Below, piece by piece: positions 6,315-64,000 of a DNA stretch of 64,000 nucleotides. Where the stretch lies: sequence record OL615011; one strand, written 5' to 3'. This DNA comes from Shigella phage vB_SboS_Gloob. The position numbers were made by a program, and so were the translations under genes. Position 1 is the stretch's first letter; each line of letters opens with the position of its first letter. A model generated the notes under the pieces. It ran no database searches. It was not told where the DNA came from and saw only the letters and a list, made by a program, of their open reading frames with translations.

Positions 6315-6545
6315 ATGAAGGGCTTCCAGGACTTTCTTGAAGACTCGGCAGCCCCTGGAACCACGACCGCCGATGTGGGGAAACCCGAAGGCGGTATGGT
6401 GAAAGAGCCTGTCAAGAAACCCAAGGATCTTGAGGAAGAACAAGAGCAGACCGACTTCCAAAAGATCTTTGGGAATATCTTCAAAGACCTCGACCTGAAG
6501 AATGCACGAAGGTGGAACTTCAGGACAGGCAAATATGAAGACTAA
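6315..6545 (+). CDS. small protein with capsid-targeting-sequence-like N-terminus (MKGFQDFLED)
   Basis: N-terminus matches the MKxFQDFLTE paralog family in this window and resembles T4 internal-protein CTS MKTYQEFIAE. Confidence 0.6.
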   Translation: MKGFQDFLEDSAAPGTTTADVGKPEGGMVKEPVKKPKDLEEEQEQTDFQKIFGNIFKDLDLKNARRWNFRTGKYED

Positions 6546-6570
6546 AAGAGGCTCCGGCCTCTTTTTCATT
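6546..6570 (+). terminator. rho-independent terminator
   Basis: agaggctccggcctct hairpin followed by TTTTT. Confidence 0.6.
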
Positions 6571-6633
6571 TCCAGCATTCGGTGTATAATGGACCCGTTC
6601 CCCATGAGCGGAACCTAACTGAGGATACACCAA

Positions 6634-7146
6634 ATGCAATCCATGATCAAACGTAAAGTAGAAATCTCCCTGAATGCCCATGTTGAAATGATCCAGCAGC
6701 TTGTGTCTGACGCATATGAGGTACAAAAGGATCGCCAATCGAAGGGAGGCGTGATGGACCCCACCTGTCCCGGAAACATACTACACTATCGCATGCTGCG
6801 CTGGACTGGGCATACGGCTGCTCTGAAGAAACTGCTTTCTAAAAGATTCCAGGCCGAAAACGATGCCTATGTGTTTGGCGTCTTCCATAATTCGCGTGAA
6901 CGCGATGCGCTCTTCTATCCTTCCCGCAACCCAAAGACAGGCGAAGAACTGCCTATCCCTGATGTCGACAAGGAAGAGAGCACGGCCACCATCGCCCATT
7001 TCATGGGCACGAATATCGATAAAGCAAACATCATCGTGTTCTCTGATACACTTCATGATCCGAAACGCTTGGCTGCCGCCCATGAAATGTTGCGCAATAG
7101 CCGCAGTGCTTTCACAAATTTGACTTTAGTAGTGTTTCTGGGCTAG
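6634..7146 (+). CDS. hypothetical protein
   Basis: 170-aa ORF; TATAAT-like box about 45 nt upstream. Confidence 0.55.
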   Translation: MQSMIKRKVEISLNAHVEMIQQLVSDAYEVQKDRQSKGGVMDPTCPGNILHYRMLRWTGHTAALKKLLSKRFQAENDAYVFGVFHNSRERDALFYPSRNPKTGEELPIPDVDKEESTATIAHFMGTNIDKANIIVFSDTLHDPKRLAAAHEMLRNSRSAFTNLTLVVFLG

Positions 7147-7195
7147 ATAGTTACAGGGGAGGAAACTCCCCTATTTCCCTAACAGGAGGCGCACA

Positions 7196-7393
7196 ATGTA
7201 CAAGTTCAGAATTAACAGAGAACGTAATTCGTTCAAGTTCGGTGTAGTCGCTGGAGTTTGTTTGTTCCTGGCGCTCGAAAGCGTTGTCAGCCTGCTTACA
7301 ACATCACAAATGCAGGTGACTCGTTACCTACTTGCCATTATATTTTCTGCTGTCGGTTTACTCTGCTCCTATTTGGGGTGTGTGAAGAAATAA
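7196..7393 (+). CDS. small membrane protein (two predicted TM helices)
   Basis: AGGAGG RBS; hydrophobic segments VVAGVCLFLALESVV and LLAIIFSAVGLLCSYL. Confidence 0.55.
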   Translation: MYKFRINRERNSFKFGVVAGVCLFLALESVVSLLTTSQMQVTRYLLAIIFSAVGLLCSYLGCVKK

Positions 7394-7435
7394 ACTGGCT
7401 GCACACAGCAATACTTTGATTTGAGAAACTACATC

Positions 7436-7924
7436 ATGATGCTGTTAATGAGCGTTCCACAGAACAAGATGACCCCTGAAACAGAGGGTAAGAATCACTT
7501 CAACATCTACAGCCAGAGCCAAACGGAACTCGGGCGCTTCCTCTCGCATTTTGCCCATCATCCAGTGACTACCTATGAGCACGGCGTGTTCAACTCCATG
7601 GAAGGCTACTGGTATTGGCTAAAGTACAGGGATGACAACCTGCGCTTGCTCGACGGCTACGAAGCCAAGCAATATGGGCAGGGGTTGGCGGCCACTCGCA
7701 TCGCTGTCCTTGATCCATCATCCGAAGAATTCAAGCGCGACATTCTGTTTGCCACCAGCATGAAACTCCAGACAATGCCCGACCTGCTGAAGATCAGATT
7801 GGCGTACAGTCGACTCCCTCTGATCCATGCATACGTTCGGAACGGGAAATATAGTTTTCAAAACTCTATGGACTTTATCATAGACCACATTAATCGTCTC
7901 CGCATACAAGGAACTTTGAAATGA
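7436..7924 (+). CDS. hypothetical protein
   Basis: first ATG of track ORF (track start is TTG); stop overlaps next gene start (ATGA). Confidence 0.5.
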   Translation: MMLLMSVPQNKMTPETEGKNHFNIYSQSQTELGRFLSHFAHHPVTTYEHGVFNSMEGYWYWLKYRDDNLRLLDGYEAKQYGQGLAATRIAVLDPSSEEFKRDILFATSMKLQTMPDLLKIRLAYSRLPLIHAYVRNGKYSFQNSMDFIIDHINRLRIQGTLK

Positions 7925-8502
7925 AATTTCTACATACCATCATTGGCACTTCTTACGATTGCACTGCTCATTGCCCTGACCGTTCGTCTGTGTTCGTCCT
8001 AGGTAAACTGGTAGAAGAATTGTGTGAGCTGTCTGATGTCTACAATGGCCTGGCGGCGTCGGAACCCCTGAACGGTGAAATCGCTGATGTTATCATCTCT
8101 GCGATTGATTTGCTATATGTCGTGGAGTTTAACCCTCACCAAATCAATGGTTGCATGAACAAGGAAGAAATGATCGATTCTGTTATCTTCCGTCTTGCAG
8201 AATTGGGGGCGACAGAATCAAAAGATGTGGAGAGCCACTGGTTCCATGTGGGTGATCTGAAACCGGAGAAGCATCTGGCGCTGGCCTTGCACTATCTAGG
8301 CAGAACAACCCGCCTTTTGAACCAACCATACCGTTCAGAAGACGATCTGGCGTACCTGGTGGACAGGATCATCACCTTCGCGGCCAAAATGGCTTGCGCT
8401 GTTGGCATCGTCAACTCTGTGTCTCAGTCGGACACGCGAGTGAAGGTGGAACACGCTATTGAACACAAAGTTGAAAAGTGGCGCACTAAATTTGGTCTAT
8501 AA
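7921..8502 (+). CDS. MazG-like nucleoside triphosphate pyrophosphohydrolase (putative)
   Basis: all-alpha MazG-like acidic motif LVEELCELSD...EIADVIISAIDL. Confidence 0.5.
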   Translation: MKFLHTIIGTSYDCTAHCPDRSSVFVLGKLVEELCELSDVYNGLAASEPLNGEIADVIISAIDLLYVVEFNPHQINGCMNKEEMIDSVIFRLAELGATESKDVESHWFHVGDLKPEKHLALALHYLGRTTRLLNQPYRSEDDLAYLVDRIITFAAKMACAVGIVNSVSQSDTRVKVEHAIEHKVEKWRTKFGL

Positions 8503-12893: not shown

Positions 12894-13304
12894 ATGAAAT
12901 TACTCGGTTATTTTCGCGAACTCCCAACGGGCACTGAAGGCAAGTTGTTCTCACAGGTGAAAGGGAATGACATCGGTGATACGATGGTTCCTCTGTACAC
13001 CCGTGACCTTCCTGCCGAAGGTGCCTGGGAGCGCCGTGTGGTCGCTGCCGCCAACAAATATGGTGATGTGATTGTCGTTGCCGACCGTCACCATAGCAAA
13101 TTCATGAACAGTCAGCTCAAGATCCTGAAAGAGGCTGGTGTGATTAAATCCACCCATACCCGTGAACAGGGCTTTATCGACAATCAGGGCAACTTCCTCA
13201 CTCGTGAAGAGGCTTGCGTCGTAGCCCGTGAAGCCGGACAAATCAATCAAGTGCGCCTGAAGACAACCCCATTCCGTGAACTCTTTTCCGAAGACCTCTA
13301 TTGA
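12894..13304 (+). CDS. hypothetical protein
   Basis: 136-aa ORF starting 4 nt after upstream stop. Confidence 0.55.
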   Translation: MKLLGYFRELPTGTEGKLFSQVKGNDIGDTMVPLYTRDLPAEGAWERRVVAAANKYGDVIVVADRHHSKFMNSQLKILKEAGVIKSTHTREQGFIDNQGNFLTREEACVVAREAGQINQVRLKTTPFRELFSEDLY

Positions 13305-59867: not shown

Positions 59868-60221
59868 TTACGACAGCTGCTTCAGTTTGTAGATCGTCTG
59901 ATAGCACAGCGTCTTGATTTCATCAAGCGTGTTCTGAAGGTGGGAGTCGCACTGCCTGTAGATGCCATCGACGTCTATCACCACGCTGTTGACATAGGAG
60001 ATAGGGTCTGGGTTATAGAGCTTGATGTTCTCAAACGACGGAACGTACTGGCCACCCGCACCGATGTATGCTTCGGTAAACGTGTCCAGCAAGTCCTCCA
60101 GTTCCCCGTAGAACTCCCCGAGAGCTTTGTGCTTGGCGTAGGACGTTGTAACGAAGTGCAGGGCATGAGAGTGGGCTATAGCAAGCAGTCCACGGTTGAT
60201 GAAAATACTCGCGTTAACCAT
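59868..60221 (-). CDS. hypothetical protein
   Basis: 117-aa ORF. Confidence 0.45.
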   Translation of the reverse strand: MVNASIFINRGLLAIAHSHALHFVTTSYAKHKALGEFYGELEDLLDTFTEAYIGAGGQYVPSFENIKLYNPDPISYVNSVVIDVDGIYRQCDSHLQNTLDEIKTLCYQTIYKLKQLS

Positions 60222-60310
60222 GATTTGTTTCCTGTATTGTGAACCATCTAGTATTTAGTGTTAATGGGTCCATGAGGTACTATATAGAATAATATAACTG
60301 GAGAACGAAA

Positions 60311-60916
60311 ATGAAAACTTTTCAAGACTTTTTGACCGAAGCCGCGCCGCCGATGTCTGTTCATATCAAGGCAGACAAGATCGGCAAGTCCACCGAAGAC
60401 AATATCGGTACTTTCTTGCGAGTTAGTGTTAGTGGCGACAAAGCTACTTTTGAAACCCCAGACGGGCGCAAGATAATCCTGACCAATGCCAAAGACATCA
60501 TTTCCGCATCTGGCCTGAAAGATGGCCAGTTTGCCAGTGCCCAGATGATTGACAAGGTTGATACTGACACCGCTGTCAAGTACAACAAATCAGGCAAATA
60601 TATTGACTTGTTGGATGTCAAATCAGGTATGGGCAATTCCTTTATCTCCATTGACGGTAACAAGCAATGGAAAGAAATGACCGAAGGTGGTTGGTATGCG
60701 TATAAAGGCGGTCGCCCCGGCTTGGCTCGTTATAAGATCGCCATGGTTATGGGACCTCATGCGGGTATGCCATCTCCTGGGGAAGATATTGAATACGAGT
60801 TACCGAATGGCGGCAAAGAACGCGGAACCGTCATGAAACTGAATGGTGCATCCAAGCTGATGGACGTCAAAAACGAAAAAGGTAAGAAAGTACAAGTCAG
60901 TATGTATGTGAAATAA
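60311..60916 (+). CDS. internal-protein-like protein with CTS-like N-terminus (MKTFQDFLTE)
   Basis: N-terminal decapeptide nearly matches T4 capsid targeting sequence; L-x-E cleavage context. Confidence 0.6.
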   Translation: MKTFQDFLTEAAPPMSVHIKADKIGKSTEDNIGTFLRVSVSGDKATFETPDGRKIILTNAKDIISASGLKDGQFASAQMIDKVDTDTAVKYNKSGKYIDLLDVKSGMGNSFISIDGNKQWKEMTEGGWYAYKGGRPGLARYKIAMVMGPHAGMPSPGEDIEYELPNGGKERGTVMKLNGASKLMDVKNEKGKKVQVSMYVK

Positions 60917-60920
60917 CAAA

Positions 60921-60940
60921 AACCCCGCCGAAGCGGGGTT
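60921..60940. terminator. bidirectional terminator
   Basis: aaccccgccgaagcggggtt hairpin with A-run and T-run on either side, between convergent genes. Confidence 0.65.
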
Positions 60941-60944
60941 TCTT

Positions 60945-61427
60945 TTATGGCTTGACCAGAGTCATCTTGACGGTTTCACCCGTGTCGGTGTCTGTCAGGG
61001 TCATGACGTCTTGTGCGTTCACAGACTTCACTTTCCCTTGTCGCTTGTCGCCGTTGCGGTTGTAGTAGTCGATCAGTTCGCCTTTGGTTGGGCGGCCAAC
61101 ATCGGTGATGTCATACTGGCCGCGCTTCCCCAGCGCCCGGTGATCCACGCCTTCGGTCTTTAGATTCTTAACCCCCTCCAGGAATGCTTTGAGTAGATCG
61201 CCTGGGATAGGGGGCAGCTTCAGCTTCTCGGCCAATTCCTGTGGCTCACCTTTGATGGTCGAACCACTAGGGGACTTGTGCCCGTAGAACGTACCAGGAG
61301 TCTTGCCTTGATAGATTGAATAGCTCGGACCTTTGCTGTCGTACACAAGGGAACAAGTCCATTCAGTCTTGACTAAACGCCAACCAACTTGCTTGACCTC
61401 CGTTAGGAAGTCCTGGAACCCTTTCAT
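60945..61427 (-). CDS. internal-protein-like protein with CTS-like N-terminus (MKGFQDFLTE)
   Basis: same N-terminal motif as 60311 and 6315 genes; unrelated body. Confidence 0.6.
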   Translation of the reverse strand: MKGFQDFLTEVKQVGWRLVKTEWTCSLVYDSKGPSYSIYQGKTPGTFYGHKSPSGSTIKGEPQELAEKLKLPPIPGDLLKAFLEGVKNLKTEGVDHRALGKRGQYDITDVGRPTKGELIDYYNRNGDKRQGKVKSVNAQDVMTLTDTDTGETVKMTLVKP

Positions 61428-61435
61428 ACATCCCC

Positions 61436-62005
61436 CTAGACAGGCTTAACGCCGAGGAACTTGGCAATGTCAGCAGCCAGGTTTTTACCCTTGCTGATAT
61501 CCTGCTCCTTGCCGTTGCAGGTGACGATCACATACGGGTCATCTTCACCACCGAAGTTCACGGTGATCGCCTTGCCGATGCCAGGGATGCCAGAGTATTC
61601 GAACTCAGTGCGACCACTCTTGCGGGACTTGCCAACACCCAGTGCTTTACCGATCATCTTGTCCATGTTCGCCAGTTCCTGAGCATAGGCTTCGGTCACC
61701 TGGCCTTTGTCGGCAGACTTGCCAAAGAAGAATTCGAAGCCGTCATGGACAGCAACGACTTCCTGACCTTGGGAGATACCGTGAGTCTGGTCTGGGGTCA
61801 GCTTCACCTTGATGTTGTTGCCGTTGGTTAACTCCAGGTTGTAGACATCCGCCTGATTGTCAGGAGTGATCTGGGTCACGGTAGCACCGGAGCACCACTG
61901 AGTGCCGTCAGCTTGCTTGGTGATGGATACGCTTTTGCCCTGGACACCAGCATGGGTCTGAGGCTGAGCAGCTTGTTCTTTAAAGTATTGAAGGAACGGT
62001 TTCAT
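61436..62005 (-). CDS. internal-protein-like protein with divergent CTS-like N-terminus (MKPFLQYFKE)
   Basis: MK-x-F ... F-x-E pattern; TATAAATA box and GAGGAG RBS upstream. Confidence 0.55.
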   Translation of the reverse strand: MKPFLQYFKEQAAQPQTHAGVQGKSVSITKQADGTQWCSGATVTQITPDNQADVYNLELTNGNNIKVKLTPDQTHGISQGQEVVAVHDGFEFFFGKSADKGQVTEAYAQELANMDKMIGKALGVGKSRKSGRTEFEYSGIPGIGKAITVNFGGEDDPYVIVTCNGKEQDISKGKNLAADIAKFLGVKPV

Positions 62006-62030: not shown

Positions 62031-62038
62031 TATTTATA
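62031..62038 (-). promoter_or_regulatory. T4-type late promoter box TATAAATA (minus strand)
   Basis: exact TATAAATA about 25 nt upstream of ATG at 62005. Confidence 0.45.
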
Positions 62039-62062
62039 AGCCCCCGAAGGGGCTTTAGATGA

Positions 62063-64000
62063 TCAGATCTTAATCTGCATGTTGCCGCCCAGGGACTGCT
62101 CATACTCACTGTATGCGCTCTCCCCGTCGTCTTTCGCCCACTGGTCAGACTGCTGGGCGCGAGCCAGAGTCATCAGGTTTGGTTCAGTCGGGTTGTAACC
62201 CTTGGACTTCGCATCCTGGTACAGAGTCTGCAGGTACTGGTTGGCGCGGTCAATCTGAGCTTTGAACTCGCGATATGCACCTTCAGTTGTATTGCGGCGG
62301 AAGGTGATATCCCAGTCCACGTTCAGAGTCTGACCATCACGGCTTGCATAGATCTGCCAATCCAGGTCGCGACCTTTTGGAGCGTTGTCGCGGATGGAAC
62401 CAGCGTATGTTGCAAGGTCAACACCAGTCTTCTTAGCAGTATCCGGTTCTTTATCCAGGCGTTCTGTTTCTTTGGACAGGATACCCAACATAAATTCATT
62501 GGTGCGGCGATCCGCCATGTCGTGCCCGCGCCAAAGGACTGAACCGTTGTTGTCAACAAAAATGTCGTCCAAAAATACTTGTTTCGGATTATGTGACGTG
62601 CTGTTCAGAGTTTGCATATTCCGAGATATCATTTCCATTTTAGAAGAAATTTCATCGATCACGGCCTGAACAATATCTTTCTTCAAAGGAAGTTCATATG
62701 TCTTCGGATTGTTCAACAGTCGCCCTTTCTGAGAGATCATCGGCGTGAACGCGACTTTTCCTTTGTCGTAGTAATAGGTCACATTCGTGGTCAATACAGC
62801 ACCATCATACTTCCCAGTTTTCGGGAAATTGACACCAGACCAAGTGATGGACATACCGTTGACAGTCTCACCAAACACCATGGCGTTGCGCGGCATCTTC
62901 AGGGTTCCAGAGTTGACCAGATCAGCGCCCTGGGCATTCAGGTCGATAGAACCATAGATGGTCCCGCTACGATCTTTCAGCATCAGGGTCTTGTCGCCCT
63001 TCTCTGGGATGATTTCCAGCAGGTGCTTGCCGCGCAGAGGCTCTTTGTTGAGTTCCAACAGAGCAGTGTTCCCTGGCTTCACACGATTCAGGACAGCGTC
63101 GGACACTTTCAGAGTCCAGTTTGCGGTTTCCACATAACCCCAGCCCTGAGAATGACGGATGGCCTTGATAGGGTATGGGGCACTCATTGGCACTGCGCTG
63201 ATTTCCCATTCGCCGCGATACTGATGTTCAGCGACGTATGTGATCGTTTCCATGATTTCGTTTGCCACCCGACGAGCATCGCCAGAGATGACACCAGGCT
63301 GAGTTTCGATTTCAGAGAACACGTTGTAGGTCAGATTCTTGCCATCGACTGAATCGAAGCTGACGATGATCACCAGACCACCTTTAGTTTGATAACGCGC
63401 CTGTCCGATCTTCTTAATGCTTTCCCCTGGGAGATAGCTTGCTTTCTGGTCAATGTTGGTATCAATGATACCCAGAACACGAGCGATGAAACCGCTGTCA
63501 CGCAATTGATCGATACTGGTTGCCCCGATTGTGGTGTTGGAGTCAGCTGGCGCGGTCTTCTGCTGAGAACCTTTCCAAAATTTTGTGGACGCCGTGGTGA
63601 AATCATTCAAGATACTGATAGGGACTTGCGGTAATTTCAACTGACGAGCAATGAAATCAGCACTTTGCCCACGCACAGATTTCTCATTCATGTATGCGCC
63701 AACATACACGCCTGGCTCATTGTAGTGGGGAGCGATATTTGCCGTGTTCATGCGGCCTCTCTCCTTACCAACCCATATCAACATGGGTTGATCCCCGTTT
63801 GAAGTTAATTTCCATCCGTTGGAATCATCAACAGAAGATGAAGCCCCCACATCTGGGGTATTGTCTTGAACCGGAACGTCACCGACCTTGTCTGGGTCAT
63901 CCCAGGTGATACCCTGCATCTTCGGACCGTCGAATACCTGAGCAGGATCTTTGCCCTTACGGACCAACCACACATAACCACGGTCGGGGACGGGCGCATA
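62063..64000 (-). CDS. large hypothetical protein, 5' end beyond window
   Basis: reading frame stays open to position 64000 (track start at 63973 is an internal GTG); more than 645 aa. Confidence 0.6.
   Translation of the reverse strand, partial: YAPVPDRGYVWLVRKGKDPAQVFDGPKMQGITWDDPDKVGDVPVQDNTPDVGASSSVDDSNGWKLTSNGDQPMLIWVGKERGRMNTANIAPHYNEPGVYVGAYMNEKSVRGQSADFIARQLKLPQVPISILNDFTTASTKFWKGSQQKTAPADSNTTIGATSIDQLRDSGFIARVLGIIDTNIDQKASYLPGESIKKIGQARYQTKGGLVIIVSFDSVDGKNLTYNVFSEIETQPGVISGDARRVANEIMETITYVAEHQYRGEWEISAVPMSAPYPIKAIRHSQGWGYVETANWTLKVSDAVLNRVKPGNTALLELNKEPLRGKHLLEIIPEKGDKTLMLKDRSGTIYGSIDLNAQGADLVNSGTLKMPRNAMVFGETVNGMSITWSGVNFPKTGKYDGAVLTTNVTYYYDKGKVAFTPMISQKGRLLNNPKTYELPLKKDIVQAVIDEISSKMEMISRNMQTLNSTSHNPKQVFLDDIFVDNNGSVLWRGHDMADRRTNEFMLGILSKETERLDKEPDTAKKTGVDLATYAGSIRDNAPKGRDLDWQIYASRDGQTLNVDWDITFRRNTTEGAYREFKAQIDRANQYLQTLYQDAKSKGYNPTEPNLMTLARAQQSDQWAKDDGESAYSEYEQSLGGNMQIKI

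Follow-up and report, generated by a model that had tools for sequence, protein, structure and literature searches.

A cluster of phage genes with T4-type N-terminal leaders: candidate internal head proteins assembled from shuffled modules in Ackermannviridae

Results

The gene cluster and its leaders

The DNA analysed here, referred to below as the window, is a stretch of 64,000 nucleotides from Shigella phage vB_SboS_Gloob (record OL615011), and the system in question is a group of adjacent genes close to its right end whose products begin with a short, similar leader peptide. Judged by sequence, the source is an Agtrevirus phage: over the stretch compared, the region and Shigella phage MK-13 (Ackermannviridae, Agtrevirus) have 98.5% identity, and about 270 Ackermannviridae genomes share parts of the region. 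An earlier note, made from the letters of the window, had listed three open reading frames (ORFs) with the N-termini MKTFQDFLTE, MKGFQDFLTE and MKPFLQYFKE and had likened their leaders to the capsid targeting sequence (CTS) of the internal proteins (IPs) of phage T4. The coordinates, strands and N-termini were all reproduced (Table 1). When the large gene at the window end is counted, however, the cluster is one of four leader-bearing genes, not three. The start of ORF2 lies only 8 nt past the stop of ORF3, so that the two are probably co-transcribed. The neighbour on the other side of ORF1 belongs to Pfam DUF5856 (E=9e-30) and begins MVNASIFINRG..., with no CTS-like leader.

Table 1. Features of the cluster and its borders, in positions of the window
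Feature	Position	Strand	Description
ORF1	60311-60916	+	201 residues, leader MKTFQDFLTE then A; accessory gene, strand opposite to rest of cluster
ORF1 leader	60311-60340	+	10 codons; predicted CTS, predicted cut after L-T-E
ORF1 module B	60764-60904	+	residues 152-198; small SH3/Tudor-like beta-barrel (predicted), common to ORF2
GC-rich hairpin	60918-60943		between convergent ORF1 and ORF2; terminator-like on both strands
ORF2	60945-61427	-	160 residues: leader MKGFQDFLTE, module A, module B
ORF2 leader	61398-61427	-	10 codons
ORF2 module A	61176-61385	-	residues 15-84; motif ...ELAxKLKLPPIPxDLLKAF
ORF2 module B	60948-61148	-	residues 94-160; core of phrog_5709
ORF3	61436-62005	-	189 residues: leader MKPFLQYFKE, conserved N-domain, C-terminal module C1
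ORF3 leader	61976-62005	-	10 codons
ORF3 codons V103-T104-E105	61691-61699	-	candidate second protease site at C-terminal module exchange junction
Late-promoter-like box TATAAATA	62031-62038	-	26 nt upstream of ORF3 ATG
Large virion protein	62063-64000	-	C-terminal 645 codons; start beyond window end
Dps/ferritin-like protein (DUF5856)	59868-60221	-	virion-associated neighbour without leader; bounds cluster

To compare the leaders with the T4 model, the T4 propeptides were re-derived from T4 DNA (a slash marks the cut). IPII and IPIII begin MKTYQEFIAE/A, the CTS that the earlier note had given correctly; IPI has MKTFKEFTSTTTPVSTITE/A, a propeptide of 19 residues of the form MKTFKEF...ITE/A, and Alt has MELITELFDE/D. 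The identity to the IPII/IPIII sequence is 6/10 for ORF1 and 5/10 for ORF2, for which the description as near-copies is fair, and only 3/10 for ORF3, for which a word of that strength would be generous. The tetrapeptide FLTE that closes the ORF1 and ORF2 leaders is also found at the cut site of T4 gp23 (...GSFLTE/AEIGG). Common to all three leaders are aromatic residues at positions 4 and 7 (F4/F7 in ORF1 and in ORF2, F4/Y7 in ORF3), a hydrophobic residue at position 8 and Glu at position 10. In the T4 CTS, residues 4 and 7 (Y4 and F7 in IPIII) serve targeting and residues 8 and 10 serve processing, with an Asp at position 10 blocking cleavage (PMC9026906). M1, K2, F4, L8, E10 and A11 are invariant in the alignment of the ORF1 family, as are M1, F4 and E10 in that of the ORF3 family, in which position 8 is occupied by F, L, M or Y. 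The positions conserved in the leaders (4, 7, 8 and 10, followed by a small residue) are those functionally mapped in T4, which favours their reading as a CTS. The processing motif L/I-x-E is fitted by L8-T-E10/A in ORF1 and L8-T-E10/V in ORF2, and only approximately by F8-K-E10/Q in ORF3. L-T-E10 is the sole [LI]-x-E site in the full ORF1 protein, whose leader is modelled as a short low-confidence helix preceding the first strand.

Then, how exceptional are such leaders? Among the 264 ATG-started ORFs of at least 50 residues in the window, only ORF1-3 match the leader motif, as compared with 0.0003 matches expected from composition and no shuffle out of 2000 reaching three, the motif having been built from these same leaders, i.e. 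after the data had been seen. Nine of the first 11 residues of ORF1 and ORF2 are identical, and six of these nine are encoded by different codons. The difference in codons beneath identical residues indicates that selection acts on the leader peptide, and it rules out a recent DNA duplication or an RNA element as the source of the shared leader. The leader was also found on the slot proteins of phages of the Kuttervirus, Limestonevirus, Agtrevirus, Taipeivirus-like and Miltonvirus groups. In MK-13, a genome-wide census with a looser pattern gave clear matches, as far as annotated genes are concerned, on the four cluster genes and on one 65-residue gene of the tRNA region; the remaining matches were a doubtful 136-residue ORF and short or internal starts.

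The 65-residue gene lies between tRNA-Asn and tRNA-Ser of MK-13 (NC_049455, positions 60512-60709, minus strand), and its N-terminus, MKTFGDFIAE, is identical to the T4 CTS at 7 of 10 positions. T4 ipI likewise adjoins the T4 tRNA cluster. For the body of the 65-residue protein, neither a Pfam family nor a relative among the cluster proteins was detectable. An ORF of 136 residues at 12894-13304 on the plus strand of the window begins MKLLGYFRE and sits among early or replication genes. Since its Glu is one position out of register, its setting is that of early genes and it has no Pfam hit, we set it aside as a probable chance match.

The fourth member of the cluster is best described from MK-13, where the large protein has 681 residues and the N-terminus MSKPNFLQFMQEKDQLDE/AFNS, with a predicted leader that ends in L-D-E19. 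The first ten residues vary between genera (MAIPSFLNFLEE, MSTPNFLDFMKE, MNITPFNTFLES). The site [LIV]-x-E/AFN[ST] near residue 19-23 is kept in nearly every homologue, including distant ones (MLTE/AFNS, LLTE/AFNT, LVTE/AFNS), the exception being the Miltonvirus protein with V-I-S-E/AFNS. This leader resembles the 19-residue propeptide of T4 IPI. The N- and C-terminal domains of the large protein are conserved and enclose a mosaic middle that contains module A. By eye the N-domain had appeared Alt-like, an impression that we rejected on the basis of BLASTP (E of at least 0.8) and hhalign (probability 0.4%); no ADP-ribosyltransferase domain and no Pfam domain was detected in the large protein.

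Head-assembly machinery and virion proteins

The T4-type partners of such a leader are encoded in MK-13. Its prohead protease belongs to Peptidase_S77 (E=2e-30) and is 38% identical to T4 gp21; its scaffold is of the gp22 type (T4_CASP, E=5e-44), with the N-terminus MKPELQKLFE/G; and its capsid protein (Gp23, E=5e-124) is 36% identical to gp23. The sole L-x-E in the capsid protein's N-terminal region is NLGE51/S. A gel band of 44.6 kDa in phage AG3 falls between the full length (about 48 kDa) and the estimate for a cut after E51 (about 42 kDa), which does not fix the maturation site.

Published virion proteomes bear on two of the three small proteins and on the large one, in each case through orthologues in LIMEstone1 and Sajous1. 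Electrospray ionisation tandem mass spectrometry of LIMEstone1 identified ORF080, ORF081, ORF082 and ORF078 as virion proteins, with 23 and 4 unique peptides and coverages of 55% and 20% for ORF081 and ORF082, respectively (its Table 2). We mapped ORF080 to ORF3, ORF081/ORF082 to the large protein and ORF078 to the Dps-like neighbour. For Sajous1 purified on caesium chloride, the reported spectra number 196 for gp214, 32 for gp215, 20 for gp216 and 10 for gp217. By sequence gp214 is the large protein, gp215 the ORF3 orthologue and gp217 the Dps-like protein, and gp216 consists of MKGFPDFLKE plus module B, i.e. the short form of ORF2. The searched paper texts did not contain the diagnostic mature peptides, and the cluster proteins did not appear in the searched part of Sajous1 Table S3.

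Two side observations concern the same proteins. The Dps-like protein is present in the virions of both LIMEstone1 (ORF078) and Sajous1 (gp217) although it is leaderless. ORF081 and ORF082 of LIMEstone1 (L001, positions 6348-7944) are annotated as an overlapping pair where other phages have a single large gene, and the C-terminal third of ORF082 diverges in a frameshift-like manner, which reflects either a genuine split or an artefact of sequencing or annotation.

Bodies built from shuffled modules

The bodies behind the leaders had been taken in the earlier note to show no similarity to one another. This proved wrong, as the C-terminal module is common to ORF1 and ORF2, and module A is common to ORF2 and the CBA120 orthologue of ORF3. 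Comparison of their sequences indicates that the leader-bearing genes exchange a few rare modules, from which their bodies are pieced together as mosaics. Module B, of about 48 residues, relates the C-termini of ORF1 and ORF2 at 29% identity (E=8e-5); it is the core of phrog_5709, has a predicted SH3/Tudor-like barrel fold and could bind nucleic acid or peptide. Residues 15-83 of ORF2, within module A, match the C-terminal half of ORF3's CBA120 orthologue at 41% identity (orf109, residues 108-178; E=6e-8). In CBA120-type phages module A takes the place of that half in the ORF3 family, and it recurs within the large proteins (hidden Markov model (HMM) E-values of 2e-5 to 7e-7).

The same parts appear in many arrangements. 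The ORF2 slot holds only leader and module B (79 residues) in LIMEstone1, FEC14, P46FS4, 3HA11 and Sajous1, and further relatives carry the leader with module A alone or with module A and a different tail. Members of the ORF3 family run through the N-domain up to an invariant V-T-E105 and then continue with C1 (the type in the window), module A, module B or nothing; one relative dispenses with the N-domain and consists of leader, C1 and B. In the model of ORF3, a disordered linker (residues 96-103) directly precedes a helix (105-122), and V-T-E105, at that border, is a plausible second protease site. In variants of the large protein, the mosaic middle holds A and/or B in one or two copies.

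The modules are rare: when 1.84 billion representative proteins were searched exhaustively with HMMs, only 17 matched at E of at most 0.001, and homologues of ORF1 form 5 clusters among 5.8 billion proteins. The ORF1 gene occurs in 12 distinct phage genomes of several genera, always in or beside the cluster and on the opposite strand. The ORF3 family (phrog_4048, E=1e-120) is conserved across Ackermannviridae, with 276 phage records. Searches for function gave little. Pfam matches were sub-threshold for ORF1 and ORF3 and none for ORF2; PHROGs placed ORF2 and ORF3 in families of unknown function and had no match for ORF1; fold searches with the ORF1 and ORF3 models returned generic small barrels or alpha+beta sandwiches only. 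There was no effector-like match for ORF1, ORF3 or the large protein, nor for ORF2, which was searched by sequence only. The PDB holds no solved structure for any cluster protein or any Ackermannviridae capsid.

Ahead of module B, residues 126-137 of ORF1 (window 60686-60721) form an invariant GGWY...GGRPG within a low-confidence linker. Distant module-B proteins from other phage-like sources (P0054, P0055) have a glycine-rich GSGNFGHxGRPGxxGGS upstream of the module. In the large gene, the part within the window (62063-64000, minus strand) was set against positions 7268-9313 of L002: the flanks are about 98.5% identical to MK-13 and the centre is wholly different, resembling phage P46FS4 instead. 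A P46FS4-like centre between MK-13-like flanks points, on this alignment, to a recent mosaic exchange inside a single gene.

Upstream elements

The exact late-promoter-like box that had been noticed upstream of the third gene was confirmed. TATAAATA has 2 copies in the window as compared with 0.48 expected, and the LIMEstone1 annotation gives a matching box in the same context as a putative late promoter. Between the large gene and ORF3, this box is directly adjoined by a GC-rich stem-loop (62040-62058; AAGCCCCTTCGGGGGCTT when read on the minus strand). The late-type box found upstream of LIMEstone1 ORF078 lies in a hairpin loop (ATCCCCC-TAAATAC-AGGGGGAT). Such pairs of box and stem-loop recall the PeSLs, promoter/stem-loop composites that have been proposed for module shuffling in T4-like phages. 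The divergent intergenic region at 60222-60310 has two different elements, a late-type box CTAAATAC for the Dps-like gene on the minus strand and a conserved CACTATATAG for ORF1 on the plus strand. Because these elements differ, the two genes may be expressed at different times.

Discussion

The findings above lead us to propose, with a probability of about 0.7, that the products of the cluster genes are internal head proteins which a T4-type CTS at the N-terminus brings into the prohead. ORF1 falls below this overall figure, and ORF2, ORF3 and the large protein lie above it. The idea of a capsid-targeting leader is well supported, though indirectly, with the number of genes corrected to four: a gp21-family protease, a scaffold and a capsid protein of the T4 type are encoded in MK-13, the positions mapped in T4 are conserved, and orthologues of two of the three proteins as well as of the large neighbour are present in virions. 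The predicted mature forms of ORF1 (20.7 kDa) and ORF2 (16.6 kDa) both have an isoelectric point (pI) of 9.3, which is within the range of 9.0-9.65 of the T4 IPs.

How would such a system work? The leader would bind the assembling scaffolding core through the aromatic residues at positions 4 and 7, and the prohead protease would then cut after the hydrophobic-x-Glu motif, which ends in E10 in ORF1-3 and reads L-D-E19 in the large protein. The predicted mature N-termini are AAPPMSVHIK for ORF1, VKQVGWR for ORF2, QAAQPQTHAGVQGK for ORF3 and AFNSAPYELTMGK for the large protein, and the predicted cut junctions in Sajous1 are E/QAQQPQTHGGIQGK and E/AKVDHR. A second cut of ORF3 after V-T-E105 would give the N-terminus AYAQELANMDK. 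The mature proteins would remain in the head with the DNA and, in what is a weaker step of the scheme, would exit with it at infection, as the T4 IPs and Alt do. The cargo would be combinatorial, with one leader followed by one or two small modules (A, B, C1 or the N-domain) and the same modules placed in the large protein's variable middle. Of the products, ORF3 and the large protein are family-wide and may help to organise the head or the DNA; ORF1 and the variable slot that holds ORF2 are sporadic and look like exchangeable accessory cargo.

Several observations weigh against this proposal or narrow it. The head genes were analysed in MK-13, as the head module lies outside the window. Virion mass spectrometry establishes presence in the particle, not location in the head, and the removal of the leader in virions is a prediction from sequence. 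The proteomes that support the other members come from LIMEstone1 and Sajous1, which do not have the ORF1 gene, and none of the 12 genomes that do has a published proteome. The TAAATA late box is also absent from ORF1, whose conserved upstream element CACTATATAG is similar to a 'putative middle promoter' of LIMEstone1. The T4 IP genes are expressed before late times too, which makes a middle-type promoter for ORF1 compatible with packaging, although the caveat stays. In ORF3, position 8 is F rather than L or I, and the predicted mature form is mildly acidic (pI 5.9). As to ejection and a host target, the role of injected effector or anti-restriction factor is suggested by analogy with T4 IPI only. 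T4 IPI* gave no Pfam or PHROG link to the cluster and the fold searches of the ORF1 and ORF3 models gave no IPI match, so that the likeness to IPI is confined to the leader.

It is also possible, if rather unlikely, that the leader does target the prohead but that the proteins are core, scaffold or DNA-organising parts rather than host-directed effectors, whether or not they leave the capsid. Conservation of ORF3 and the large protein extends over essentially the entire family, the large protein is among the most abundant virion proteins (196 spectra in Sajous1, 23 unique peptides in LIMEstone1), and no effector-like fold was found in the ORF1 and ORF3 searches, all as such parts would have it; mutants of T4 IPIII, moreover, show assembly defects (PMC9026906). 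What this explanation does not account for is the turnover expected of conflict genes, which is seen in the variable slot, in the sporadic ORF1 (12 genomes) and in the mosaic middle of the large protein, and it may fit ORF3 and the large protein and leave the effector role to the accessory genes. We consider it quite improbable that the N-terminus common to these proteins is unrelated to capsid targeting and is instead a feature of translation initiation or expression, or else a generic amphipathic helix, on proteins that enter the virion otherwise. The peptide and not the RNA is conserved, as the codons of six of the nine residues shared by ORF1 and ORF2 differ, its conserved positions 4, 7, 8 and 10 plus the small residue coincide with the functional map of T4, and the clear matches in the MK-13 census are confined to the four cluster genes and one gene of the tRNA region. 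On the other side, the Dps-like neighbour reaches the virion without a leader, cleavage of the leader is a prediction only, and an AAA second codon is a common expression-enhancing feature.

The least probable explanation, to which we give very little weight, is that of a tail-associated iron-piracy operon. [quoted passage not shown] The confidences were 27-63%, ferritin excepted, and the Sajous1 abstract reports for the single host tested no dependence on that iron-uptake pathway. The adjoining gene is indeed Dps/ferritin-like, and ORF3 has a Pfam match to TOBE (E=0.036); this match is below threshold, though, the ORF3 fold search is non-specific, and the T4-type leader and protease motif on three of the four genes would be left unexplained.

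If the cluster proteins are internal head proteins, a further extension can be sketched, which we regard as doubtful. One leader would serve many cassettes: a few rare cassettes (A, B, C1, N-domain) would continually recombine behind the CTS and within a large internal protein of the polyvalent type, some junctions would carry protease sites (e.g. V-T-E105/A) that free several polypeptides, and these would be delivered together with the 5-NeOmdU DNA as a fast-evolving counter-defence arsenal. Ackermannviridae DNA carries 5-NeOmdU, and injected inhibitors of modification-dependent nucleases would therefore be a reasonable but unsupported guess.

These phages (ViI, CBA120, LIMEstone, Ag3 and relatives) are widely used in biocontrol and therapy, and about half of their genes are unannotated. 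For this recurring cluster of abundant 'unknown structural proteins' the only prior functional proposal was the speculative iron piracy. The T4-type leader would place the cluster genes in the head interior and predicts exact mature N-termini; by analogy, it makes the products of ORF1 and of the variable slot candidates for injected proteins of host takeover or counter-defence. A tag of 10 residues might also serve to load foreign proteins into Ackermannviridae heads, as has been done with T4. Packaging by a CTS would thereby extend beyond Straboviridae, with domain cassettes shuffled behind a constant leader.

Comparison with known systems

Internal head proteins targeted by a CTS are a known kind, of which the proposed case in Ackermannviridae is apparently undescribed; the searched literature made no link between this family and CTS or internal proteins. 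The closest parallel is with the T4 IPs. Both have a leader of 10-19 residues that starts MK-x-aromatic; position 7 is again aromatic, position 8 hydrophobic and position 10 Glu, with Ala as the usual next residue. Both T4 and the closest genome to this phage encode a gp21-family protease and a gp22 scaffold. Both sets are small proteins whose bodies vary between related phages behind a constant leader and whose genes are dispersed or accessory, and ORF1 and ORF2 are basic like the IPs. In contrast, the bodies share no sequence or fold with IPI, IPII or IPIII, the phage family is a different one, and ORF3 departs from the IPs in the F at position 8 and its acidic mature form. The cargo here consists of recurrent shuffled modules whereas the T4 IPs are unrelated proteins, and cleavage and ejection are at most inferred.

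The large protein is comparable to T4 Alt, an ADP-ribosyltransferase processed by gp21 at both ends. Both have about 680 residues and begin with a short propeptide, predicted in the large protein, that ends in hydrophobic-x-Glu (MELITELFDE/D in Alt, MSKPNFLQFMQEKDQLDE/A here); Alt is head-packaged, as the large protein probably is. There is no significant similarity between the two, however, and the large protein is far more abundant than the approximately 40 copies of Alt. Many head-internal proteins of the giant phages phiKZ and SPN3US, among them their head ejection proteins, are likewise targeted by N-terminal propeptides and cut at a short motif ending in Glu by a gp21-like protease, and paralogous or modular families are common among them. 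Their propeptides are long and diverse in contrast to a T4-like tag of 10 residues, and their capsids contain an inner body or protein bolus; no such body or bolus is known for Ackermannviridae. Finally, Iyer, Burroughs and Aravind reportedly described in 2017 the polyvalent proteins of phages and conjugative elements, which are multi-domain and delivered by the virion. The enzymatic domains typical of these were not detected in the large protein, but it shares with them an architecture in which small modules are strung between conserved ends and also occur as stand-alone genes.

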